Assembly: GCA_900548695.1 (NCBI GenBank) | Contig: URLC01000001.1 | Span: 271,354 to 335,353 of the forward strand | Reading direction: 5' to 3' | Source of the DNA: an uncultured Mycoplasmatota bacterium | GTDB taxonomy: Bacteria > Bacillota_I > Bacilli_A > RF39 > UBA660 | Length of the DNA stretch: 64,000 bases | Shown: positions 3,485-63,710 of the stretch, piece by piece | Layout: every line of letters starts with the position of its first letter | How positions within the stretch are numbered: position 1 is the first letter of the stretch | Program-made: the position numbers and the translations under genes | The notes under the pieces: model-generated | Databases searched by the model: none | Told to the model about the DNA's origin: nothing | The model's input: only the letters and a program-made list of their open reading frames with translations

Positions 3485-4939
3485 TTATAAGTTTAATAGC
3501 TTTAATATGATATTTAATATATAAGTTATTATATTGTTTTTTGTATTAGGAACTTTAATTTTATAGTCGGTTAGAGTTATTATTTCATCTTTGGTGTCTG
3601 TAACATTTAGATTAATGTTTTCAACTTTATGGTAACCTTCTGTTGAATTTTCTTGGACAATACGATATTCTCCGTAAGGAAGTGTTACTTCGGCTTTGCC
3701 ATTTTCATCTGTGGTAATTGTTGTTACTAAGTTGTTGTTTTTATCATAAATTGAAAAGCGAATGTTTTTTTCTGGTTTCTTATTGTTTTCATCATATGTT
3801 TTATAGATGATTATTTTTTTCTTGATAATTTCGTCAAATACGGATACCTTTATTTTATTATTTTCTTTAGATATTTCTATATGGTGTTTTTCTTTATCTA
3901 ATTGATAACCGAGTGGTGCCTTTATCTCTTGTAAATAATATTTACCAAATGGGATATTTTCAATTTTACCTAGACAATTCTCATTGATGGTAATTTTAGC
4001 AATTTCTTGTCCGTCTAAATTATATAGACCATAGATGGCACCCACTAGAGAACCTTGACCTGATGCTATTTTAGAATTTGTATCTTTATCTAGCTTTTCT
4101 ATTTCTATTTCAGTATTAACTACTTCTACTTGGAATTTTGTTATTTTATCAGTTAAGTCACCAGTTTTCATTAGTGCTTGGCTTGTTTTAGATTGATAGA
4201 ATAGTATTGGCTTATTGTAATTTTTTTCACTTCTTATTAAATCTATGCTATACCTACCTGTTGTTAGATTTTTTGCAATTATTTTATTTCCTTGAATTTC
4301 AAATTTCGAATTTGTTGATTTATATTCAGATAAGACATTATTTGCGTCTTCTATTATTAAATCATTACCTTCAATAATAGTGTATGTTTTATTTGACATC
4401 GTTGGGTCTTTTTTGTAGTTTGATATTAATTGATTTATTTCGTTCATTTCTTGAGTAAATCTTTCTATTTTAGGACCGTTTAGACCATCGGTAAAATAGA
4501 AATTACCTGTAGGATCAGCTGTTTGCCAAATCATGAATTGAGTTATAGCATACCATTTAGTATCGGTGTGATTTTTATAACCGTATCCAAAGTACGCAAT
4601 TAAAGATATTTGTTCTTGTTGTTCTTTAGTTAAGTTACTTGGAGTTATTGTTTCCTCATAGATACTACCGCTTTCAAAAAATACAAAAGGATCAATACAG
4701 TAAGCATAATTATTTGTACCAGTTTGTCTAAAAAATCTGGCTTTTTGATAATAAATAGTGGAAGAGTTTGCTTTTTGTTTGTTGATGTAGATATCGTCAA
4801 TATATTCTCCTTCATAAAATGTACTGCTTTTAGCATAGATATTAGTAGTGCTACTTATTAGTATTATGATAAATGTAATTAGAATAAATAATATTTTTTT
4901 CATAACTTTCCTCCTTCGTTTCGCTTTTGATAGTAGCAA
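3485..4939 (-). CDS. secreted cell-surface adhesin with Cna B / prealbumin-like domains and a possible N-terminal thioester-type domain; atypical C-terminal sorting signal
   Basis: Signal peptide MKKILFILITFIIILISS. YCIDP and TQFMIWQ motifs (thioester-domain-like). Cna B-like segment ...GKYYLQEIKAPLGYQLD. C-terminus VPNTK followed by a hydrophobic tail; sortase gene immediately downstream. Confidence 0.55.
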   Translation of the reverse strand: MLLSKAKRRRKVMKKILFILITFIIILISSTTNIYAKSSTFYEGEYIDDIYINKQKANSSTIYYQKARFFRQTGTNNYAYCIDPFVFFESGSIYEETITPSNLTKEQQEQISLIAYFGYGYKNHTDTKWYAITQFMIWQTADPTGNFYFTDGLNGPKIERFTQEMNEINQLISNYKKDPTMSNKTYTIIEGNDLIIEDANNVLSEYKSTNSKFEIQGNKIIAKNLTTGRYSIDLIRSEKNYNKPILFYQSKTSQALMKTGDLTDKITKFQVEVVNTEIEIEKLDKDTNSKIASGQGSLVGAIYGLYNLDGQEIAKITINENCLGKIENIPFGKYYLQEIKAPLGYQLDKEKHHIEISKENNKIKVSVFDEIIKKKIIIYKTYDENNKKPEKNIRFSIYDKNNNLVTTITTDENGKAEVTLPYGEYRIVQENSTEGYHKVENINLNVTDTKDEIITLTDYKIKVPNTKNNIITYILNIILKLLNL

Positions 4940-16433: not shown

Positions 16434-16645
16434 ATATTGAAATATTGCTAGTAGTAGTAGTGTAGTTTCTTATTTCTAGAGAGTTTATGGTTGGTGAAAG
16501 TAAACAATAAGTGCTATATGAACTTGATTGGCTGATAGTATTTAGGGTTAGACCTTTATCTCAATAAAGCTGCGTAGTAGAACTACGAAGTAAGGTGGTA
16601 CCGCGAAGATTCGTCCTTATAGTTGTATAGGGGCGTTTTTTTTAT
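16434..16645 (+). promoter_or_regulatory. T-box riboswitch leader, leucine-specific (candidate specifier CUU at 16523-16525), ending in an intrinsic terminator
   Basis: AGAGAG stem-I element; GAACUUGA specifier context; conserved T-box AAGGTGGTACCGCG at 16593-16606; terminator hairpin TCGTCCTTATAGTTGTATAGGGGCG plus a T-tract. Confidence 0.85.
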
Positions 16646-16656
16646 AGGAGGATTTT

Positions 16657-17013
16657 ATGTTTCAGGAGTTTATTTTATTTACTATGTGTTTTTTTGTAGT
16701 GTTAGTGGTATATGAAATTTTTATTGTTAGGAAAACTAAAAAGGATAAGAACAAAAAAAAACCTATGGAAGTTAGATACTTAATTACTAGGTATCATTTA
16801 AATATGCAAAAAGTGGATTATCCACAATTGTTACAAATTGTTGCTTTAGTATCATCGTTTGATATTGCACTTATAGTTTCTTTAGCGATGATTGTTGATT
16901 CCTATTTATGGCAACTTCTTTTGGTTTTAATACTAGTTTTACCTGTTATTGTTGTTAGTTATCATTTTGTTGGGATATTTTATAGAAAGAGAGGAATGAC
17001 GAAGAATGTATAA
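16657..17013 (+). CDS. small polytopic membrane protein (118 aa), hypothetical; translationally coupled to leuS
   Basis: Strong RBS AGGAGG 7 nt upstream; 3 TM segments; stop overlaps the leuS start (ATGTATAA). Confidence 0.45.
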
Positions 17014-19819
17014 TTTTAGTAAAATAGAGGAAAAATGGAGAAAATATTGGGAAGATAATGATACTTTTCATACTGATGTTTGGGATTTTAGTAAGCCTAA
17101 GTTTTATGCTTTAGATATGTTTCCTTATCCTTCTGGAGTAGGACTACATGCAGGACATGCTGAAGGGTATACTGCTACTGATATTATTTCTCGAATGAAG
17201 AGAATGCAAGGATATAATGTATTGCATCCGATGGGCTATGATTCTTTTGGGTTACCAGCAGAACAGTATGCTGTAACTACTGGTAATCATCCTAATGGAT
17301 TTACACAAAAAAATATTGAAACTTTTAGTAATCAGTTAAAAGCTATTGGTTTTGATTATGATTGGTCTAAAACTTTACAAACAAGTGATCCTAAATTTTA
17401 TAAATGGACACAATGGATTTTTAAACAATTATATAATGATGGTTATGCTAAATATATTGATATGCCAGTTAACTGGTGTGAAGAACTTGGGACTGTATTA
17501 TCTAATGATGAAGTAATTGATGGTAAAAGTGAACGTGGTGGATTTCCTGTTGTTAGAAAGAATATGAAACAATGGGTTATTGATCAAGCTGCTTTTGCTG
17601 AAAAATTACTTGCTGGGCTTGATGAACTTGACTGGCCTGAGTCTACTAAGGAAATGCAAAGAAATTGGATTGGCAAATCCATTGGAGCGCAGGTTATTTT
17701 TAAAGTGGCTGGTACTTCAGAAGAATTTAAAGTTTTTACTACTCGTTGTGATACTTTATTTGGAGCTACTTATTGTGTTATGGCCCCAGAACATGAGCTT
17801 GTTGATAAAATTACAACAGCTTCACAGAAAGAAGCAGTAGATTCTTATAAGAGAGTATGTGCTACTAAAAGTGATTTAGAAAGAACAGAACTTAATAAAG
17901 AAAAAACGGGTGTTTTTACTGGTTGTTATGCGGTTAATCCAGTTAATAATAAAGAAATTCCAATCTATATTTCGGATTACGTTTTAGCAAGTTATGGTAC
18001 TGGTGCTATTATGGCGGTTCCAGCACATGATGATCGTGATTTTGAATTTGCAACTAAGTTTAATATTCCAATTATTCAAGTGTTAGAAGAAGTTACTGGT
18101 AAAAAACATGATGATGAGTCTAAAAAAGAGTCTATTGTGGCTATTGTATATGATAAAGAAGAAGATAAGTACTTAACCGTTAATTGGAAAGAAAATGGTG
18201 GTCGTCTATTTATTGGTGGAACTAGAAAAGAAAATGAGTCTGCGGTAGATTGTGCTATTCGTGAGGTTTTAGAAGAAACTGGGTATACTGATATCGAACT
18301 TGTATGTGAGGATTTTAAAATTAATCATCATTATTATGCTTATAATAAAGATAAATACTTTAATATTGAGGCTACTCCATTATTGTTTGCACTTAAGAGT
18401 AAGAAACAAGATTCTCAAAATTTAGAGGAAGATGAAAGTTTTACTGTTGAATGGGTAGATAAGTCTACTATTTTAAAAGAAATCAAGGATGAATTACATT
18501 TGAAATCGTTTGAATATGTTTTAAATCCACGTGCGATGTCAGGTGATGGTATTCATATTAATTCAGATTTTTTAAATGGTTTAAATAAAGAAGATGCTAT
18601 TGACAAAATGATAGATTGGCTTACTGAGCATAATTGTGGTTCTAAGCAAGTGAATTATCGCATGAGAGAGTGGATTTTTGCTAGACAAAGATATTGGGGA
18701 GAACCAATGCCAGTTGTTTATTTAGAAAATGGGGATATTCATATTTTAGATGATGATGAGTTACCACTTATTTTACCTGAGCTTGATGATTATAAAGGTC
18801 ATGGTGGTAAGGCTCCACTTGAAAATGCCAGTGATTGGAAACAATATAGTCATAATGGTTTGAAAGGGGTTCGAGAAACTTCTACTATGCCTGGTTCGGC
18901 TGGCTCATCTTGGTATTATTTAAGATATATTGATCCAGAAAATAATGACTTTTTTGCTAATCAAGAGCTATTGAAACACTGGATGCCAGTTGATTTATAT
19001 ATTGGAGGACCAGAGCATGTTGTTGGTCATTTGATGTATTCTAGAATTTGGAATAATTATTTATATGATAAGGGATTATCTCCTGTTAAAGAACCATTTA
19101 AAAAACTAGTTCATCAGGGAATGATTTTAGGGGCTAATGGTATTAAGATGGGTAAACGTTATCCTGAGTTTGCAATTGATCCACTTGATATTGTTCGTGA
19201 TTATGGAGCTGATACTTTAAGGCTTTATGAAATGTTTATGGGTCCACTTGAAGCTTCTAAACCTTGGAGTCAACAAGGAGTTGAAGGTGCTCAAAAATTT
19301 TTGGATAGAATTTATCGTTTATATGAATCAGAAAAACTTCAAGATACAGAAAATAAAAATCTTGAAAAGATTTATCATCAAACTGTTAAAAAGGTAACTG
19401 ATGATTTTGAAACACTTAATTTTAATACTGCAATTAGTCAAATGATGATATTTATCAATGCAGTTTATAAAGAAGAAATATTTCCTAAAGAATATGCTGA
19501 AGGATTTGTTAAATTGTTAAATCCTGTTGCTCCTCATATTTCTGAAGAGATTTGGGAAATGTTAGGTCATCATGGTACTATGGCTTATGAAGCTTGGCCT
19601 ACTTATGACGCATCTAAATTGGTTGAAAATACTAAAGAGATAGCAGTTCAGGTAAATGGTAAGGTTCGGGCTACTATAACTATCTCTGTTGATGAAGATG
19701 AGGAAATTATTAAAGAGAAAGCATTGGATGCTGAGAATGTTAAGCGTCATACGGATGGCAAAGAGATTATAAAAGTAATCGTTATAAAAGGTAAAATTGT
19801 TAATATCGTGGTTAAATAA
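17006..19819 (+). CDS. leuS: leucine--tRNA ligase carrying an in-frame Nudix hydrolase domain insertion (937 aa)
   Basis: HAGHAEGY (HIGH); CP1 editing motifs TTRCDTLFG and [15 protein letters not shown]; KMGKR in place of KMSKS; anticodon-binding and C-terminal domains present. Nudix box [24 protein letters not shown] at 18215-18286. Confidence 0.93.
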
Positions 19820-21952: not shown

Positions 21953-22123
21953 ATGAAAGTGAAAATTTTTGATGAAGAAGATGAAAAGGATTTAGAAGCT
22001 GATATTAATGAATTTTTGGAGGATTTAGAAGGAGAAGTTGTTGATATAAAGTACCAAGTTGGAGTTGGAGTTTTTAGTGAAGAACAAGTGTTTTGTTTTT
22101 CAGCGATGGTAGTTTATTATTAG
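21953..22123 (+). CDS. Cse60-like small acidic protein (sporulation-associated family)
   Basis: MKVKIFDEEDEKDLEADINEFLEDLEG...IKYQVGV...FCFSAMVVYY resembles Cse60/YteV. ATG at 21953 follows an AGGTGA RBS; upstream part of the tracked ORF is intergenic. Confidence 0.5.
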   Translation: MKVKIFDEEDEKDLEADINEFLEDLEGEVVDIKYQVGVGVFSEEQVFCFSAMVVYY

Positions 22124-23867: not shown

Positions 23868-25160
23868 TTATTTGTGTCTTAAGTTTTTTAATTTATGATA
23901 TACGTTGAAAGCAAGATTATAGGTATGATACCATAATGGTGATATGATAAGATCAAATTCTCCAATTAATTCTACTACATGTCCTCCAAAACTTTTTTTA
24001 AATAAATATAGTCCATATAGTGGATTTTCTTTTCTAAAATCGCCTGTTATTCCGTAGAAATTATATTTTTTGTATCCATGTTCTACTGCGTATTTAATTC
24101 CAGCAAAGTGAATTGTATAAGCCGACTGAAATTGCATAACATTGTCTAAAGTTCCACCATGTAGGGATAATACTTCATTACCATATATTAGAAAGAGTAT
24201 ACCTCCTAATAATTTTTTATCGCCATATTCTTTTTTATAATCTGCAATTTTTTCTAGTTGTTTTTTTAGTCTTGCAATTTCTTGTTCATTTTTCTTATTA
24301 TTTTGTTCATATTTTTTGGGATTCATTTTTAGAATGTCATGTTCTTTTTTATAAATTCTATCTTTTAGTTCTTTTTCATTGCTACTTAGCTCTTCTTTAG
24401 TATTTTTTTCAAATTCTAAAAAATCAATTTCTGAGACTAATATTTTTAATATACCGGCATCATGTAAAGAGTCCCACATGTTTTCGTAATAAGACAAGGG
24501 TCTATCTACAAATTCACGTCTATCGCTGGTGTGTTGCATGATATCTTTAAATAATGGTAGTTCTTCTTTTTCTATTTCTCTGGTTTTAATACCTGATCTT
24601 TCATTTTTTCTAAGTATTTGTCTAGTTTTTGATTCCATATCTTTCATAATGTCATCTAAACTTTTATTTTCTGTTTCAATTACATGCATCCATCTTGGTT
24701 GTAGGGTATCTTGCATTAGATTAAAACCAAAGTGTTTATAACCTAATTCTTTTAAGTTGTCTACAGTAATACTGTTATCTATCCCATCTTTAACAATATC
24801 ACCGTTGTTATTTCTTTCCTTATATTCTACATAAGGGTCAATTTTCACAAAGATGGCATTTTCTTTTTTTGCATATTCTTTTAAATTTTTAGTAAAATTT
24901 TTTAATATGTTTTTGTCTTTATAATCTAATAAAAAACCACGCGGAGCATAAAACATTTTTTTATGTATGATTGGTAATGTTTTAGATAAGATTAAGCTTC
25001 CTGCTATGATTTTATTATCTTCTTCTAGAATTAAGTAGTGTGCTTGCCAATTGTTTTTACTTTTTAGGTTTGCCCATTCTTTAGTTTGATAAAAAGTAAT
25101 TTCAGAATTTTTATCGGCAAATTTTTTCCATTCTTTTTCACTGATTTTTTTTAACTTCAT
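23868..25160 (-). CDS. FemAB-family peptidoglycan interpeptide-bridge aminoacyltransferase (paralogue 1)
   Basis: Collinear with S. aureus FemA, including the coiled-coil insertion and C-terminal NFYGITGDF...GLYLFKKSFGG. Confidence 0.8.
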   Translation of the reverse strand: MKLKKISEKEWKKFADKNSEITFYQTKEWANLKSKNNWQAHYLILEEDNKIIAGSLILSKTLPIIHKKMFYAPRGFLLDYKDKNILKNFTKNLKEYAKKENAIFVKIDPYVEYKERNNNGDIVKDGIDNSITVDNLKELGYKHFGFNLMQDTLQPRWMHVIETENKSLDDIMKDMESKTRQILRKNERSGIKTREIEKEELPLFKDIMQHTSDRREFVDRPLSYYENMWDSLHDAGILKILVSEIDFLEFEKNTKEELSSNEKELKDRIYKKEHDILKMNPKKYEQNNKKNEQEIARLKKQLEKIADYKKEYGDKKLLGGILFLIYGNEVLSLHGGTLDNVMQFQSAYTIHFAGIKYAVEHGYKKYNFYGITGDFRKENPLYGLYLFKKSFGGHVVELIGEFDLIISPLWYHTYNLAFNVYHKLKNLRHK

Positions 25161-26451
25161 TTTCTATCTCCTTCTTACTTTTTCTTCTTACCATTTTTCT
25201 ATAAATGGGAACTAATTTAGTAAAGAAAAAATACATTGGTTTGTTGGTTATATAATCAAATTCTCCAAGAAATTCGATATAGTCTCCGCCAAATTTCCGT
25301 TTAAATTCATGAAGTCCAAAACGTGGATTGTCTTTTGATAAATCACCTATTGTTCCAAATTGATCATATATTTTAATGCCTTTTTCTTTACAATATTTAA
25401 TATGTTCTTCATAAGTATAATAATTGACATAAGTTTCAGTTAAAACATTATGGTTACCAGCATATAATACCCAAGCTTTATCAGCATATTCAATAATCAT
25501 ATGGGCACTTAGGGTTAAATTATTTCCATATTTTTCTTTGTATTCTTCGTATTTTTTAATTTCTTTTACATAGTTTTCTTTTTGTTTTGTTAGTTCATTT
25601 AATTTGTTTTTAGCACTTTTACTTAGATTATCAATTGGTAAAATAGATATTTGATTATTTACAGCTTTTAGATTTTCTTTCATTTTTTTGATAGTTCTAT
25701 CTAAATCAACTTTACCTAGAAAAAGTGTAGCCTTACCATTTTCACTACCATTGAAGATGTCATATAAAGTTTCATAATAATCTTCATTATAAGAGACAAA
25801 ATCTTTTCTTGTTTCTGTTAAGGTCATTAAATGATAAAATTCTTTTAAGTCTTTTTCAGTACCGATTTCTACATAAGTATCTAACTTTTTGGCTTTAGCA
25901 ATTCTTTGTTTAGTAGTTTTAGAAAAATGATTTTCTATATCTTCTAAGCTTTGATTCATATCAATTCTAAATGTATATCTTGGTTGCATTGTTTCAAAAT
26001 TTTTGGTAAAGCCTAAATGTTTATAACCTACTTTTTTTAAGGTTTCAAATATTTTATTTGTATCATAAGGTAGCTTTTGTTCTTGATCTAAGTAGTTGTA
26101 GTCTTTATAGATTAAGTCAGGATCTATTTTGACAAAAATGGCTTTTTTACTTTTCGCAAATTTTATTATTTCTTTAGTCATTTCTTTCACTAGTTTTTCG
26201 TCTTCATAGTTTAATATATAGCCTCTTGGACAATAAAAATAAGAGTATTTCATTGGTAGGTGTTTTTGTAGTAATAAAGCAGTCGCTAAAATATTTTTCT
26301 TATCATCTACTAATCCTAGATAGTAAGGTGTTAGATGCCTTTTTACTTTAGATAATTCTCCCCATGCATAGGATTGTAAAAAGTGTGATTTTTTTTGTTC
26401 TTTTACAAAGTTTTCATAAATTTCTTCAGTTAAATGTACTAGTTTAGCCAT
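25138..26451 (-). CDS. FemAB-family peptidoglycan interpeptide-bridge aminoacyltransferase (paralogue 2)
   Basis: Same architecture; YDQFGTIGD...GLHEFKRKFGG; 23-bp overlap with paralogue 1. Confidence 0.8.
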   Translation of the reverse strand: MAKLVHLTEEIYENFVKEQKKSHFLQSYAWGELSKVKRHLTPYYLGLVDDKKNILATALLLQKHLPMKYSYFYCPRGYILNYEDEKLVKEMTKEIIKFAKSKKAIFVKIDPDLIYKDYNYLDQEQKLPYDTNKIFETLKKVGYKHLGFTKNFETMQPRYTFRIDMNQSLEDIENHFSKTTKQRIAKAKKLDTYVEIGTEKDLKEFYHLMTLTETRKDFVSYNEDYYETLYDIFNGSENGKATLFLGKVDLDRTIKKMKENLKAVNNQISILPIDNLSKSAKNKLNELTKQKENYVKEIKKYEEYKEKYGNNLTLSAHMIIEYADKAWVLYAGNHNVLTETYVNYYTYEEHIKYCKEKGIKIYDQFGTIGDLSKDNPRFGLHEFKRKFGGDYIEFLGEFDYITNKPMYFFFTKLVPIYRKMVRRKSKKEIENEVKKNQ

Positions 26452-29968: not shown

Positions 29969-30044
29969 TTCTTTTCTTTTTTTTGGTACTTTTCAAAGAT
30001 TAAAATATATGATATATTAGATACATAATTTTTTATTGATAAGT

Positions 30045-30235
30045 GGATTAGTAATGATTATTTTTTATTTATAGAGATTTAGTGGTTGGTGAAAACTAAA
30101 ATGAGAATAGTTATGAAATACGACATTTGGAGAAAAATCGTTTATCGCGTTAAGATATTTGAGAGTATAGAGAAATCTATAAATTAAGGTGGTACCGCGA
30201 ACTATTCGTCCTTATTTGGGAGAATAGTTTTTTTG
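30045..30235 (+). promoter_or_regulatory. T-box riboswitch leader, tyrosine-specific (specifier UAC at 30119-30121), with an intrinsic terminator
   Basis: GAAAUACGA specifier context; conserved AAGGTGGTACCGCG at 30186-30199; terminator CTATTCGTCCTTATTTGGGAGAATAG plus T7. Confidence 0.85.
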
Positions 30236-38464: not shown

Positions 38465-38686
38465 GTGAATGAAATGAACAACACAAAGAATTCTACTATG
38501 AAAATGAGAGTTCCTGGTGCTAAACAAGCTATTGATAAAATGAAATATGAAATAGCTAATGAATTTGGTGTTAATTTAGGACCAGATGCTACTAGCCGTG
38601 CTAATGGTACTGTTGGTGGTGAAATTACTAGACGTTTAGTTCAAAATGGAATGAACCAAGTTAGTGGAAGCTACAATAACAAATAG
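38465..38686 (+). CDS. alpha/beta-type small acid-soluble spore protein
   Basis: [41 protein letters not shown], a textbook alpha/beta SASP. Confidence 0.85.
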
Positions 38687-43346: not shown

Positions 43347-44828
43347 TTATATGACAATAGTTATTAGATTGTTAGATCCTTTATTGACCACTTTAGCAAG
43401 GGTTGTTTGGAGTTTTAATCTGATGTTATCTGGCATTAGGTTTATTTTGGATTGAATACCTTCTTGAACTATTGAATCTAGGCTTCTACCGAATATTTCA
43501 CTTTTCCAAATGTCACTAGGATTTTTGTCTTTATCTTTAGTGAGGTAGTCAATTAATTCTTTGCTTTGAACTTCGCTACCAATTATTGGTTCAAAAGTTG
43601 ATTCTACGTCGACTCTTATCATATGAATTGATGGAGCAACTGCTTTTAATTTTACTCCATAACGTGGACCTTGTTTCACGATTTCTGGCTTATCTAGTTT
43701 CATATCTTCAATCGATGGAGTAGCAACACCATAGCCGGTTTGTTTTACCATTTTTAGCGCATATTTAATTTGATCATATTCTTTTTTAGCAGTATTGAAT
43801 TCTTGGAATAATGCTAGTAGCTGTGCTTTACTTTGGACATCTATTTTTATAATGTCGGTTAATACTTGATTATAAAGATTTGGTGGTGCAGTTAAAGTTA
43901 TAGTAATTATTCCAGTTGATGCATCTACTTCTGAGAGATAGGCTTTTTCAATCATATCATTGGTTAGAAAATGATCCGTTATATGTTCTATATCTTTTAG
44001 TTTATCTATTTCAATTACACTTTCTCTGATGGTATTCATATAAGTCTTTTTAACCGGGTGATCTGGGTTTAAAATAGTAATCCATTCTGGCATATTTACT
44101 TTTACTTCTAGCACTGGAAATTCATATAGGGCTTCCCGTAATATATTGTACATATCTTTTTCATTCATTGCTTCTATACTAATTGGTAGGACGGGTACTT
44201 GATGTTCTTCTTTTAGAGATTCAGCTAAACGAATCGTTTCTGGTAGAGTAGGATGCGTAGTGTTTAAAATTACGATAAATGGTTTACCAATACTTTTTAG
44301 CTCATCTATTACTCTTTTTTCAGCTTCAATATAGTCATTTCTATCGAATTCTCCAATAGATCCATCTGTTGTGATAACAATACCGATGGTTGAGTGATCC
44401 TTAATAACTTTTTCTGTTCCTATTTCAGCTGCTTCAACAAAGGGAATTTCTTCGGTATACCAAGGAGTTTTTACCATTCGAGGACCATTTTCATCCGTTG
44501 CTCCCAAAGCTTTCTCAATCATATAACCGACACAATCTATTAGTCTAATATTACAAGTTACTTCATCTATTTTTATTTTTGCGGTATTATTAGGGACAAA
44601 TTTTGGTTCAGTAGTCATAATTGTTTTTCCGGCTGCACTTTGCGGTATTTCATCTAAAGCTCTTTTTCGTTCATATTCATCTTCGATGTGTGGGACAATT
44701 AAAGTTTCAACCATTCTTTTTATAAAAGTTGATTTTCCTGTTCTTACTGCACCAACAACTCCAAGATAAATATCTCCGCCACTTCGCTTTGCAATATTTT
44801 TAATAATTTCTTGTTTATCCATACACAT
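43347..44828 (-). CDS. spoIVA: stage IV sporulation protein A (spore coat morphogenetic ATPase)
   Basis: GGDIYLGVVGAVRTGKSTFIK Walker A; collinear with B. subtilis SpoIVA over the full length. Confidence 0.92.
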   Translation of the reverse strand: MCMDKQEIIKNIAKRSGGDIYLGVVGAVRTGKSTFIKRMVETLIVPHIEDEYERKRALDEIPQSAAGKTIMTTEPKFVPNNTAKIKIDEVTCNIRLIDCVGYMIEKALGATDENGPRMVKTPWYTEEIPFVEAAEIGTEKVIKDHSTIGIVITTDGSIGEFDRNDYIEAEKRVIDELKSIGKPFIVILNTTHPTLPETIRLAESLKEEHQVPVLPISIEAMNEKDMYNILREALYEFPVLEVKVNMPEWITILNPDHPVKKTYMNTIRESVIEIDKLKDIEHITDHFLTNDMIEKAYLSEVDASTGIITITLTAPPNLYNQVLTDIIKIDVQSKAQLLALFQEFNTAKKEYDQIKYALKMVKQTGYGVATPSIEDMKLDKPEIVKQGPRYGVKLKAVAPSIHMIRVDVESTFEPIIGSEVQSKELIDYLTKDKDKNPSDIWKSEIFGRSLDSIVQEGIQSKINLMPDNIRLKLQTTLAKVVNKGSNNLITIVI

Positions 44829-55431: not shown

Positions 55432-55735
55432 CTCATCACCTATTTTGTATTATACTATATTTTTCGTAATTTTTCTATAATTTTTATGGTTAAAATTTAT
55501 AATCATTATTTTGTTATCTTTTGTCGAAAGTAATGAAATTAATTTTATTTTGGGTATGATAGTAATAGGTGATAGATATGAATAATTTTGAAGTTATAAG
55601 AATTCTTAATAGAATGTATGATAAGACAAGAAGTGCTAAATTAGAGATGTTTTTAACTTTTATAAAACAAGGGCAAGACAATTGACAAAAAAGTCAAGAA
55701 ATGACATAATATTACTGTAAGGGATTGGTGATAAA

Positions 55736-56077
55736 ATGTATCAGAATAAGATTACACTTATGCCACAAGATATTTTGGAGAAAGAATTTAAAATTGATAC
55801 TCGTGGATACCGTTTAAAAGAAGTAGACCAGTTTCTTGATATTATTATTGGTGATTATGAACAGTTTTTAAATATTATCAATAATTTAGAGAAAGAAAAA
55901 GCTGACTTGTTGGGTGAAATTATGAATTTGAAGCAAGAACTTCGCAATTCTAAAATGAGTATGGAAGTTGCTCGCAATAATGTTGAAGTTCCAGAAGTTA
56001 CAAATTTAGATATTTTAAGACGTCTTTCTCAACTTGAGAAGATGGTGTACAGTAGTAACAAGGATAATAACAATTAA
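55736..56077 (+). CDS. gpsB: cell-cycle protein GpsB (DivIVA-domain)
   Basis: MPQDILEKEFKIDTRGYRLKEVDQFLDIIIGDYE DivIVA N-domain; 113 aa; rnpB follows directly as in Bacillus. Confidence 0.8.
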   Translation: MYQNKITLMPQDILEKEFKIDTRGYRLKEVDQFLDIIIGDYEQFLNIINNLEKEKADLLGEIMNLKQELRNSKMSMEVARNNVEVPEVTNLDILRRLSQLEKMVYSSNKDNNN

Positions 56078-56079
56078 TA

Positions 56080-56432
56080 TATAGACAAACGCTGATATTT
56101 TTAAGATATTAGAGGAAAGTCCATGCTCGCACAGTCTGTGATGATTGTAGTGTTCGTGCCTAGGGAAAAAATAACCTAGGGTAGCATATGCTAACGGCGG
56201 AAGATAATCTAAGTCTTTGATATGATTTATTCCATAATGTGCCGCAGAGACGAGGCTTTAGGAAACTAAAGAGTGAAACGTGGTAAACCCCGCGAGCGAG
56301 AAACCCAAATTTGGTAGGGGAGCTCTAATGAAAGAATCGAATGGAGTTAGGGACCAAGTAATTGGTAGATAAATGTTTGTCGCCTGGCAACAGGAACGGA
56401 ACATGGCTTATTTATATTATTTGTTTATTATA
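56080..56432 (+). ncRNA. rnpB: RNase P RNA, type B (Bacillus-type)
   Basis: AGAGGAAAGTCCATGCTCGCACAG, GTAGTGTTCGTGCCTAG, GTGAAACGTGGTAAACCCCGCGAGCGAGAAACCCAAATTTGGTAGGGGA and ACATGGCTTA match conserved B. subtilis RNase P RNA blocks. P1 pairing is between 56081-56089 and 56422-56430. Confidence 0.85.
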
Positions 56433-58782: not shown

Positions 58783-60180
58783 ATGAAAAAGTTAAATCAA
58801 TTAATTTCTTGTGATTATGATATAGAAATTTCTGGGATTACTACTGATTCGAGAAAAGTAGAACCAGGGTATTTATTTGTTGCAACTAAGGGCTTTAATG
58901 TTGATCATTTTGATTATATTGAAGATGCTATTTCTCGTGGTGCTGTAGCAGTTATTGTTGATCGTCAATGTAGTTTTTCTATTCCAACTGTTTTTGTTTT
59001 AGATATCGATAAGACTTTGATTAAAATTTGTGAGACTTTTTATGAAGTTGATATTTCAGAATTTCATTTTGTTGGTATTACTGGTACAGACGGAAAGACA
59101 ACAACAGCAATGATTACTAGAAATTTATTAAATATGTTTTATCCTACGGCATATCTTGGAACTAATGGTCTTGTTTGTGGTGATGATAATTATGCTACTT
59201 CTAATACTACTCCTTGTATTGAAGAACTTTATCATTATTTTTCTATTATTAAAGAACATAAGTGTAAACATATTGTTATGGAAGTGTCTAGCGAAGCTTT
59301 ATTACATCATAGAGTTGATTCAATAATATTTGATGTTGTAGCTTTTACTAATATTACAGAAGATCATTTGAATGTTCATAAAACGCTTGAAAAATATAGA
59401 AGTTGCAAATTTAAATTGGCTGAGCTATGCAAACCATCTGGTAAGATATTTATCAATGGTGATGACAAAAACTGTCAATTGTTGACTGTAAATGATAAAG
59501 TTAGTTTTGGACTAAATAGTGGTAATGACTGTGTCATTTCTGATGTTAACAAATGTAAAGATTATGTAAATTTTATGACTACATATCAAGGCAAGCAGTT
59601 TACTTTTTCTAGTCCATTTGTTGGTCTTTACAATGTGTATAATGTTACATTGGCTTGGTTAATCGTTGGTTTTTTTGTATCAGATTTAGATGTTTTATCA
59701 AAGAAAATTTCATTATTGCCTGGTGTTTTAGGTAGAAGGGAAATTTTTAAGACTTCTTTAGGTGTTGATATTTTATTGGATTATGCTCATACAGAAAATG
59801 GAATTTTAAATTTATTAAGGAGCTTAGATGATTATAAGTCGCTTATTGTAGTAACTGGAGCAGCTGGTGGGAGAGAAGTGGAAAAAAGAAGTAGGATTGG
59901 GGATATTTTATTTAAATATGCCACCTTTATTGTATTTACTATGGATGATCCACGATATGAAGATCCTGAAGAAATTGCAAAGCAAATCATAGGAAAACAT
60001 CAGGAGAAAAATTATACATTTATAAAAGATAGAAAAGAAGCTATTAGTTATGCTTTATCTATTAGTTCAAAAGATTCGGTCGTGGCAGTGATTGGAAAAG
60101 GTAGGGATAATTATATGGCTATTGAAGATAAAAGACTTCCTTATTCTGATTATGATGTTATTAAAAAATTATTGAAATAA
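58783..60180 (+). CDS. murE: UDP-N-acetylmuramoyl-L-alanyl-D-glutamate--diamino-acid ligase (MurE)
   Basis: N-terminal DSRKVEPGYLFVATKG; Mur ligase P-loop GITGTDGKTTTA; DDPR motif in the position of DNPR. Confidence 0.8.
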   Translation: MKKLNQLISCDYDIEISGITTDSRKVEPGYLFVATKGFNVDHFDYIEDAISRGAVAVIVDRQCSFSIPTVFVLDIDKTLIKICETFYEVDISEFHFVGITGTDGKTTTAMITRNLLNMFYPTAYLGTNGLVCGDDNYATSNTTPCIEELYHYFSIIKEHKCKHIVMEVSSEALLHHRVDSIIFDVVAFTNITEDHLNVHKTLEKYRSCKFKLAELCKPSGKIFINGDDKNCQLLTVNDKVSFGLNSGNDCVISDVNKCKDYVNFMTTYQGKQFTFSSPFVGLYNVYNVTLAWLIVGFFVSDLDVLSKKISLLPGVLGRREIFKTSLGVDILLDYAHTENGILNLLRSLDDYKSLIVVTGAAGGREVEKRSRIGDILFKYATFIVFTMDDPRYEDPEEIAKQIIGKHQEKNYTFIKDRKEAISYALSISSKDSVVAVIGKGRDNYMAIEDKRLPYSDYDVIKKLLK

Positions 60181-60186
60181 CCAATT

Positions 60187-60213
60187 ATCGACAATATTCG
60201 ACATTGTTCGACA
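60187..60213 (-). promoter_or_regulatory. three tandem Spo0A boxes (TGTCGAT, TGTCGAA, TGTCGAA on the minus strand) phased at exactly 10 bp
   Basis: Plus-strand TATCGACA (60187-60193), ATTCGACA (60196-60203), GTTCGACA (60206-60213). The reverse complement TGTCGAA is the 0A-box consensus. Confidence 0.55.
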
Positions 60214-60282
60214 AAATAATTTGGCATATTATTTTACGTTACTTGTGAGTAATATTAAGATTATTTTGAAAGGAATGTTAGT

Positions 60283-60837
60283 TTGAAAAATAAGAAAGTT
60301 ATTTTTTGTTATTTTGATGTTGAAAAAAATAATTATATGGAAATTAGTGGTAAAATTAATCCTTATGATTATGCTGATTTTAAAAATGAGGTTTATCATA
60401 TGAAACTTGATTCTATTCATTCTACGAATTCTTTTTTTAAGGAAGCATTTTCAACAGCCGATTTGCTGAGACTATTCTGTTCAAGTTCTGAGGTTGTTGA
60501 TTTAACTTTTTTATCTAGAATTTTAAATGATGTCAGTTTAGATGATGATAGATTAAAAGCTATTTTAAATTCTTTTTTTAGTAAAATAGAAATTGATGGT
60601 ATTTTTTCATATACGAAAGAGCAGCTTGGGACGATTATTAGGGAGGCTAATAACCCTATTTTTCTACAGCCGTTTACGTATAATCAGGTTAATAGACAAG
60701 TAGCTAGTCTTGATTATAATACAAAGGCTTTATTAGCTAGTGATTATGATTTTGTTAAAGCTTATCGTTTGCAACAAGAGGGCTTTAAAAATGAGGAATA
60801 CAACAGAGTTTCTACTTTAGTAAAAACAGTTTCTTAA
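60283..60837 (+). CDS. hypothetical protein (TTG start), candidate Spo0A-regulated gene
   Basis: AAAGGAA RBS 7 nt before TTG at 60283; terminator at 60836-60872; 0A boxes about 70 bp upstream. Confidence 0.4.
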   Translation: MKNKKVIFCYFDVEKNNYMEISGKINPYDYADFKNEVYHMKLDSIHSTNSFFKEAFSTADLLRLFCSSSEVVDLTFLSRILNDVSLDDDRLKAILNSFFSKIEIDGIFSYTKEQLGTIIREANNPIFLQPFTYNQVNRQVASLDYNTKALLASDYDFVKAYRLQQEGFKNEEYNRVSTLVKTVS

Positions 60838-60872
60838 AAAGTCTAGAAAGTTAATTTCTAGACTTTTTCTTT
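60836..60872 (+). terminator. rho-independent terminator
   Basis: GTCTAGAAA-loop-TTTCTAGAC followed by a T-tract. Confidence 0.75.
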
Positions 60873-62502: not shown

Positions 62503-62634
62503 TTGCTTCTTTTTGTTTTATAGAAAAAACTTTACATTTATATACATATTAGATATTTGTTTTATCACGTAAATCTTGATATAAAAAATTATAAGTTGCT
62601 ATAATATGGTTATAGTAGTGAGAGGTAAGTTTAT

Positions 62635-63372
62635 ATGAAACAATGTTTTAAATGTGGTAATTATTTGGATGACAATCAAAATTTTTGTGCTAATTGTGGA
62701 ACAGCAATAAATGGGTATGATAACAACTTTAGCAATATTAATACTCAGAATAATTTAACTTCGAATGATAATCCCAATAATTCAGTAAGTAATATGACAA
62801 CTAGTTTTCAAAATCTTGATAATAATATTAATCAAGATAATAACTTTTCTGGTATGAGTACTAATAATTCTAGTACGGCTAGTAGTTATCAAGTTAATAG
62901 TATGATAAGTTCTAAAGATAGTGGTGGAAGTACTATTCCAAGAATTAGTAAAAGAAATATTGTTGGGGCTGTTATTTTTTGTATTATTACGTGTGGCTTG
63001 TTTGGAGTTTTTTGGCAATTTTGGATTATTAATGATACTAAAAAGTTAACTGGTGATAATAAAATAACAACTTTACCATTAGTACTAATTATTGTAATGA
63101 GCTTGCTATTTTATATATTAACTTTTATAAGTCCAATTTTAGGAATTATAGATTTAATTATTATTTGTGGTTGTATCATTTATACTTACTATCTAAATTA
63201 TAAAATAGGTAGAGGCTTATATTTAGCCGGGCAACAATATAATAAGGTTGTATCAGATTATTCAATTATTTATTTGGTTTTATCTATTTTTGGTGTGGGA
63301 ATAGGTTATATGATAAATATGTGTTTAATGCAAAATGATTTAAATAAATTTGGTGTTAATAAGGGTGAATAA
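62635..63372 (+). CDS. zinc-ribbon / low-complexity / TM membrane protein, hypothetical (architecture similar to 44882-45937)
   Basis: CFKCGNYLDDNQNFCANCG followed by an N/S-rich linker and 3-4 TM helices. Confidence 0.45.
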   Translation: MKQCFKCGNYLDDNQNFCANCGTAINGYDNNFSNINTQNNLTSNDNPNNSVSNMTTSFQNLDNNINQDNNFSGMSTNNSSTASSYQVNSMISSKDSGGSTIPRISKRNIVGAVIFCIITCGLFGVFWQFWIINDTKKLTGDNKITTLPLVLIIVMSLLFYILTFISPILGIIDLIIICGCIIYTYYLNYKIGRGLYLAGQQYNKVVSDYSIIYLVLSIFGVGIGYMINMCLMQNDLNKFGVNKGE

Positions 63373-63653
63373 GTAGATATTTGTGTTGTAAAAGTATTAA
63401 GATATTAATCTTAATGCTTTTTTTATTAAAATTTGGAGTACATCAGTTTAATTATATTTTAATTCTATATTATAAGTGTATTTTCTTGGCAGATTATTTG
63501 TTTCGAAATTTCTATCGTCTAAATAACATTTACAAATAAATTATAAGGAACTATCTTTTTAATTAATATTTGACACTTTAGTAAATAATTCTATTTATTA
63601 TACTTAATCATTTATATAGAAATCGTCTTGCGAATTGGTTCTTTTATTGTATT

Positions 63654-63680
63654 AAAAAACCGCACCATTTGGTGCGGTTC
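63654..63680 (-). terminator. rho-independent terminator of the RNase J-like gene (minus strand)
   Basis: AACCGCACC-loop-GGTGCGGTT; the T-tract is on the minus strand. Confidence 0.7.
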
Positions 63681-63710
63681 GAATTTTAATTGAGGGAAAA
63701 ATAGAGTTAA

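Follow-up and report, generated by a model that had tools for sequence, protein, structure and literature searches.

Three direct repeats of the 0A box, which recur every 10 bp exactly and lie between murE and the gene for a 184-aa orphan protein, very probably make up, to judge from their sequence, a Spo0A-controlled sigma-A promoter of familiar kind. We put at roughly 80% the probability that the array is a Spo0A-bound site controlling the promoter of the 184-aa gene, with either sign. The Spo0A interpretation, already advanced in a preliminary description of this DNA, is supported by the motif and its spacing, by conservation of the array at orthologous genes, by equivalent arrays at spo0A and comK in other genomes, and by the sporulating nature of the lineage. 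Positions below are those of the window, the whole 64-kb stretch of DNA analysed.

The array and its setting

The array occupies 60187-60213 of the plus strand (ATCGACAATATTCGACATTGTTCGACA), where the heptamers ATCGACA, TTCGACA and TTCGACA are separated by ata and ttg; their minus-strand forms TGTCGAT, TGTCGAA and TGTCGAA agree with the Spo0A core at 6, 7 and 7 of 7 positions. The boxes start at 60187, 60197 and 60207, giving head-to-tail repeats of 7+3 bp with an exact 10-bp period. Reading of the window thus bears out the CGACA cores at 60189, 60199 and 60209 and the description of two perfect and one near-perfect 0A boxes in 10-bp phase. The 0A box is defined by a 7-bp TGTCGAA core with specific contacts at G2, C4 and G5, and is recognised alike by the Spo0A proteins of B. 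subtilis and C. difficile (PMC3485338); all three boxes match this core, with G2, C4 and G5 in place, and lie as direct repeats 3 bp apart. The array starts 6 nt beyond the murE stop codon (60178-60180), and its distance from the TTG start of the 184-aa ORF (60283), earlier put at about 70 bp, measures 69 nt from the end of box 3. The features of the region are as follows.

58783-60180, plus strand: murE, the gene 5' of the boxes, with no terminator before them
60187-60193, minus strand: 0A box 1, TGTCGAT (plus strand ATCGACA), with a single mismatch, at position 7; its TCGACA core is invariant in L001-L008
60197-60203, minus strand: 0A box 2, perfect TGTCGAA (plus strand TTCGACA); its TCGACA, 60198-60203, lies 21 nt 5' of the proposed -10
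60207-60213, minus strand: 0A box 3, perfect TGTCGAA (plus strand TTCGACA)
60214-60282, plus strand: putative core promoter, 5' UTR and ribosome-binding site, unusually conserved
60214-60224, plus strand: A/T-rich spacer of 11 nt, AAATAATTTGG, ending in TGn (TG at 60222-60223), with the same length and ending in orthologous and regulon loci
60225-60230, plus strand: proposed extended -10 hexamer CATATT, from an anchored sequence comparison of 29 loci
60227-60232, plus strand: alternative -10 register, TATTAT
60250-60255, plus strand: second -10-like hexamer, TAATAT, about 20 nt beyond the first; the L013 equivalent is TTGGCA-17-TATAAT
60268-60275, plus strand: good ribosome-binding site, GAAAGGAA, 5' of the TTG start
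60283-60837, plus strand: gene for the 184-aa cytoplasmic orphan protein, TTG start, proposed to be regulated by the array
60836-60868, plus strand: terminator-like intrinsic hairpin, which closes the one-gene unit of the 184-aa ORF

No terminator-like site was found between murE and the 184-aa ORF, the sole one being the hairpin 3' of the ORF, and the earlier statement that no terminator separates murE from the boxes therefore stands. Beyond this hairpin lies rny, with its own promoter, TTGACA-17-TACAAT. The region is part of a syntenic Bacilli-type block comprising recU, gpsB, a class B RNase P RNA (56076-56415, between gpsB and the RodZ-like gene), a RodZ-like HTH gene, pgsA, recA, murE, the 184-aa ORF and rny.

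Taken singly, TTCGACA is not enriched above background in this 29%-GC window, with 5 copies vs 3.8 expected over the 64 kb. The phased three-box pattern, with up to 3 mismatches allowed, was found just once in the window, and none of 100 shuffles contained it; no further good tandem pair of boxes was found in the 64 kb. A solitary perfect TGTCGAA, lacking a phased partner, is seen at 55522-55528, in the recU-gpsB intergenic region.

The window is from a sporulating lineage. Profile matches upheld the sporulation markers cited previously—SpoIVA (TIGR02836, E 3e-204; 43347-44828, minus strand), an alpha/beta SASP (PF00269, E 1e-18; 38465-38686, plus strand) and Cse60 (PF10957; about 21953-22123, plus strand)—and added SpoVIF (PF14069; 46001-46240, minus strand), these genes being scattered amid housekeeping genes. 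A search for spo0A within the 64-kb window found none; we infer both that the source genome encodes spo0A and that Spo0A is the protein that binds the array. Exact copies of the RecA and MurE of the window are present in NCBI, ENA and Logan assemblies.

Conservation of the array and of the gene it precedes

In the close relatives L001-L008, at 94-99% DNA identity, all three TCGACA hexamers are unchanged. Divergence from L001 at four-fold degenerate sites is 18.5%, and the neutral expectation for 18 unchanged sites is then 0.025; within 60181-60213, changes relative to L001 are found at 0 of 18 core positions vs 7 of 15 non-core positions (hypergeometric P = 0.0015). In L001 the seventh base of box 2 has changed (TTCGACA to ATCGACA), with the core kept. 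This comparison indicates that the array cores are under purifying selection and that the array is functional. The 69 nt that follow, 60214-60282, show just 2 differences from L001 (P = 1e-4 at the 18.5% neutral rate), which points to constraint on the core promoter and leader as well. A known RNA element or structured leader was considered for this segment and rejected, there being no Rfam match above threshold and no significant fold in 60214-60282 (z-score -1.2). A LexA (Cheo) box reading of TTCGACATTGTTCGA was discarded likewise: its length is wrong, it is non-palindromic, and it is lost in L001.

The 184-aa protein matched no Pfam or NCBIfam family and no PDB or viral fold, and no DNA-binding domain was detected in it. 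The family is tiny: 1.84 billion proteins yielded 16 representative clusters of it, every one of 170-200 aa. At all ten orthologue loci (25-98% protein identity), which cover two gene contexts, two or three boxes are present and the promoter-proximal position is kept. The distant members fetched, of 25-45% identity, all have 2-3 TTCGACA-type boxes with a 10-bp period directly 5' of the gene, distributed thus:

L013, L018: three boxes each
L012, L016: two boxes each
L015: two boxes and a degenerate third, at a contig end
L009, L017: two boxes and a degenerate third

A further orthologue with three boxes is found in L110, a GTDB genome labelled 'uncultured Mycoplasmatota bacterium', at about 80% DNA identity across the block. 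In L009 and L017 the neighbourhood differs: an unknown 436-aa gene is followed by the family gene and gltX, vs the murE/rny slot elsewhere, and in L009 a terminator-like hairpin precedes the array. Since L009 and L017 keep the array in the gltX context, it belongs to the 184-aa gene rather than to murE; the boxes travel with that gene, and their main role would therefore be control of its promoter.

In L010 an IS element (rve and HTH_Tnp_1 ORFs; 1633-2876) has inserted just 5' of the boxes of the family member, and one box has mutated to TTCGATA. In L063 (Bacilli MAG RGIG9169), a triple array with a TGc-TAGTAT module lies at 4655-4680, directly after rny and before a Bro-N domain gene; the rny-adjacent slot therefore holds genes other than the 184-aa family in relatives.

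The same module in other genomes

One genome per species, from 185,579 species (GTDB), was scanned for TCGACA-N4-TCGACA-N4-TCGACA, yielding at least 120 loci; counts by gene type and orientation given here are a sample, being those among the matches listed. High-GC matches listed mostly lie within ORFs or are simple tandem repeats. The low-GC loci, at least 27, are mostly intergenic and belong nearly all to MAGs of gut Bacilli, Erysipelotrichaceae, Mollicutes/Tenericutes/Mycoplasmatota or Clostridia; among the 27 listed, 20 have a same-direction ORF start within 200 nt and 5 have only a divergent one.

The genes downstream are varied. ComK-like ORFs of about 150 aa follow the array at no fewer than 7 loci among the matches listed, and both of those scanned proved to be ComK (PF06338, E 1e-46 and 1e-40). 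Multi-TM ORFs of about 400 aa follow it at 5 or more, both of those scanned being HisKA + HATPase_c histidine kinases. ORFs judged by eye to be PDDEXK_2-like are found at 3 or more, of which two matched the family and one (L062) matched nothing. Other downstream genes among the matches listed are one Bro-N gene and one DUF4364 gene, besides the 184-aa family. The recurrence of unrelated downstream genes argues that the motif serves a global regulator rather than being a private operator of the 184-aa gene.

Among the matches listed are also triple arrays 120-180 bp 5' of spo0A in Clostridia, namely in L026 (Hominifimenecus) and in two Agathobaculum loci, L069 and L072. The Spo0A proteins of L026 and L069 pass TIGR02875. 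Two low-GC MAGs carry a Spo0A whose recognition helix is SRVERAIRHAIEV: L127 ('Bacilli bacterium'), whose protein scores 235.7 bits vs a cut-off of 200, and L131 ('Erysipelotrichaceae'), where the protein is partial. The recognition helix is the same throughout the Firmicutes. An approximate B. subtilis Spo0A sequence served as query, and the matches were confirmed by NCBIfam.

Further arrays were noted in passing. In L021 (Oscillospiraceae MAG JAJQCH010000140), about 35 consecutive 10-bp units run for some 350 bp on the minus strand near a contig end, bounded by a stop codon and a ribosome-binding site. Of these units 32 are within one mismatch of TCGACA, and the spacers vary; the run resembles a very large phased series of 0A-box-like sites more than the product of recent tandem duplication. 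L096 and L111, both uncultured Bacilli MAGs, have triple arrays 136-137 nt from divergent ORFs of equal length (466 aa), which may be another recurrent regulon member in opposite orientation. [quoted passage not shown]

Anchoring of 29 loci at their last box revealed a common layout: the last box, then 11-12 A/T-rich nt ending in TGn, then a -10-like hexamer, as in TGgCATATT (the window), TGtCATAAT (L012), TGcTATAAT (L009) and TGcAATAAT (L016, L017). No -35 hexamer at 17 bp was found in the anchored loci. By this comparison the boxes are proposed to span roughly -50 to -24, box 3 covering about -24 to -30. Transcription is predicted to start at about 60237, though not uniquely, because a second -10-like element is present and because TTGGCA (60221-60226) stands 23 nt 5' of that element, TAATAT. 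Other readings of the promoter were tried and rejected. With box 3 taken as a -35, the place where a -10 should fall after 17 bp shows no conservation; a sigma-54 reading, TTGGCAT-N5-TTTAC, lacks the -12 GC, and other regulon members show TGnTATAAT there; and GCATA read as the -10 of a sporulation sigma factor is contradicted by the paralogous modules, which show sigma-A extended -10 elements.

Activation, repression and other readings of the array

At the spoIIG and spoIIE promoters, which need Spo0A~P, an 0A box coincides with a -35-like hexamer placed 21-22 bp 5' of a sigma-A -10 element. The window promoter is alike in its sigma-A type -10, in having no correctly spaced -35, and in an 0A box that provides a -35-like hexamer, here 21 nt from CATATT. 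It differs in having an extra consensus box (about -24 to -30) between the -35-like hexamer and the -10, for which we know of no counterpart in spoIIG or spoIIE; in the TGn of its extended -10; in boxes that are contiguous and not two separated sites; and in that the gene it would regulate is not a known sporulation gene. We propose that the three phased heptamers form a high-affinity Spo0A~P site that constitutes the upstream half of the 184-aa gene promoter. Protomers of Spo0A~P would occupy a single face of the DNA in head-to-tail order, from about -50 to -24, and sit immediately 5' of the extended -10 (TGn-CATATT); since a -35 hexamer is absent, the TCGACA of box 2 would replace the -35-like element, 21 bp from the -10. 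So placed, Spo0A~P would activate sigma-A RNA polymerase as at spoIIG and spoIIE—activation of the former by Spo0A is documented (PMC2731898, PMC12090719)—and the 184-aa gene would come on as cells enter stationary phase or sporulation, alongside the comK-like genes and orphan sensor kinases that bear this module in related genomes.

As to the sign of control, our preference for activation over repression is slight. Should Spo0A~P on the array, from -50 to -24, instead shut a constitutive extended -10 promoter, the gene would be off once Spo0A~P accumulates, like comK in late B. subtilis stationary phase; we regard this sub-case of the main reading as possible, though the less probable of the two. 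It is a strong rival because box 3 falls between the canonical -35 and -10 positions, where bound protein could occlude RNA polymerase, the last box being just 11 nt from the -10. The presence of three consensus boxes moreover points to binding of very high affinity, of the sort seen at abrB, a repressed promoter, and known sites offer precedents: two 0A boxes 3 bp apart over the core promoter, where Spo0A~P dimers protect 25-30 bp, repress phi29/Nf A2c (PMC2731898), and comK is repressed through its R1 and R2 boxes (PMC3297582). The abrB and phi29/Nf A2c sites, both repressing, have in common with the window the TGTCGAA core, the 3-bp gaps and the 10-bp head-to-tail period (PMC2731898, PMC3485338). 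They differ in that the 25-30 bp footprint covers two boxes whereas the window has three, all near-consensus, and the abrB boxes lie 3' of the start site whereas those of the window lie 5' of and over the -35 position. Against repression, and in favour of activation, are the spacing between the last box and the -10, which varies by no more than 1 nt among unrelated genes and genomes, and the strong bias of orientation toward the downstream gene (20 same-direction vs 5 divergent, among the matches listed), both more typical of activators in contact with RNA polymerase. The core promoter elements are also weak: with -10 hexamers mostly imperfect and the -35 absent, the unaided promoter should be weak, and its 21-22 bp '-35-like' geometry resembles that of spoIIG and spoIIE. 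The presence of an identical array 5' of spo0A and of sensor kinases, finally, fits positive feedback.

Other readings dispense with control of the 184-aa promoter by Spo0A. Were the array mainly a roadblock to read-through from murE, it would uncouple cell-wall genes from downstream genes in sporulation. The terminator-free interval between murE and the boxes would permit this, and roadblocks have been described for 0A boxes 3' of a promoter, at abrB and at spo0A Pv (PMC12090719). As the main function it is nonetheless improbable: the array stays with the 184-aa family where murE is absent upstream (L009, L017), there behind a terminator-like hairpin, and identical modules precede comK and kinase genes. 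Blocking of murE transcripts may be a side effect at most, confined to the murE context. That the repeats are bound by something other than Spo0A—a CtsR-type repressor, DnaA, or the 184-aa protein as its own regulator—we consider very unlikely. CtsR operators are likewise 7-bp direct repeats with 3-bp spacers, of form (A/G)GTCAAA-NAN-(A/G)GTCAAA, but every box at every locus has CG where CtsR needs CA (GTCGAA vs GTCAAA), the boxes of the array reading GTCGA(A/T) with the G invariant. Box 1 with its flank (TTATCGACA) differs from a DnaA box at a single position; a DnaA-box cluster (TTATNCACA) fails all the same, boxes 2 and 3 having three mismatches each and the conserved CGACA differing from CCACA/NCACA at the key base. 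Site and gene do move together, as an autoregulatory operator and its gene would, but no DNA-binding domain or fold match was detected in the 184-aa protein, and a private operator is ruled out because the array precedes comK, kinase, PDDEXK_2 and spo0A genes in genomes with no nearby copy of the 184-aa gene. The remaining reading, a chance or recently duplicated 10-bp tandem repeat devoid of function, could appeal to the background frequency of the single heptamer and to the simple 10-bp TCGACA tandem arrays of non-Firmicute genomes (L035, L044, L082, L128). It is refuted by the shuffles, by the orthologues, which carry the array at protein identities of just 25%, and by the conservation of the cores, which are identical from box to box where spacers differ and persist relative to L001 where spacers diverge.

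Control of the array by Spo0A also agrees with what its counterparts elsewhere precede. In B. subtilis, Spo0A~P makes direct contact with the comK promoter at boxes of which some activate and others repress (PMC3297582); those boxes (A1-A3, R1-R2) are degenerate and scattered, with sites for ComK and Rok among them, whereas the window boxes are consensus, contiguous and phased, and it is exactly the window module that comK homologues of MAG relatives carry. The spo0A arrays of L026, L069 and L072 are triple and phased like that of the window and fit the known autoregulation of spo0A via 0A boxes, of which those 3' of the promoter act as roadblocks (PMC12090719); unlike it, they serve spo0A itself, sit further from the start codon and probably precede a sigma-H type promoter.

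The array leaves the known mechanism of Spo0A unchanged. What it supplies is a well-supported candidate Spo0A target in uncultured low-GC gut Bacilli, whose sporulation control is unstudied, and a link between an orphan 184-aa family and the decision to enter stationary phase or sporulation. The module—three phased consensus boxes, 11-12 nt ending in TGn, and a -10—could serve to predict the core Spo0A regulon from MAGs, a prediction that would cover comK homologues and orphan kinases that may feed Spo0A. More speculatively, and with the odds in our view against it, the 184-aa family could be an unrecognised early developmental factor under direct Spo0A control, and the module the mark of a compact core regulon with high affinity for Spo0A, made up of comK, orphan sensor kinases and the 184-aa gene, in these uncultured low-GC gut Bacilli, labelled Mollicutes/Mycoplasmatota.

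Some features in the rest of the window were recorded in passing. Compared with its close relatives L001 and L008, the window has some 1.17 kb of inserted DNA at 62528-63695; the insertion carries, between rny and the RNase J gene, the gene for a 245-aa zinc-ribbon/DUF4234 membrane protein (62635-63372). T-box leaders at 16441-16621 and 30027-30216 lie 5' of leuS and tyrS, respectively. The LeuRS (17006-19819) is 937 aa long, and its match to the bacterial model of 843 positions is broken into three stretches, suggesting that it contains an insertion of some size. Two adjoining FemX-like peptidyltransferase paralogues are encoded on the minus strand at 23868-26451; at 430 and 437 aa, each is longer than its 337-position model.
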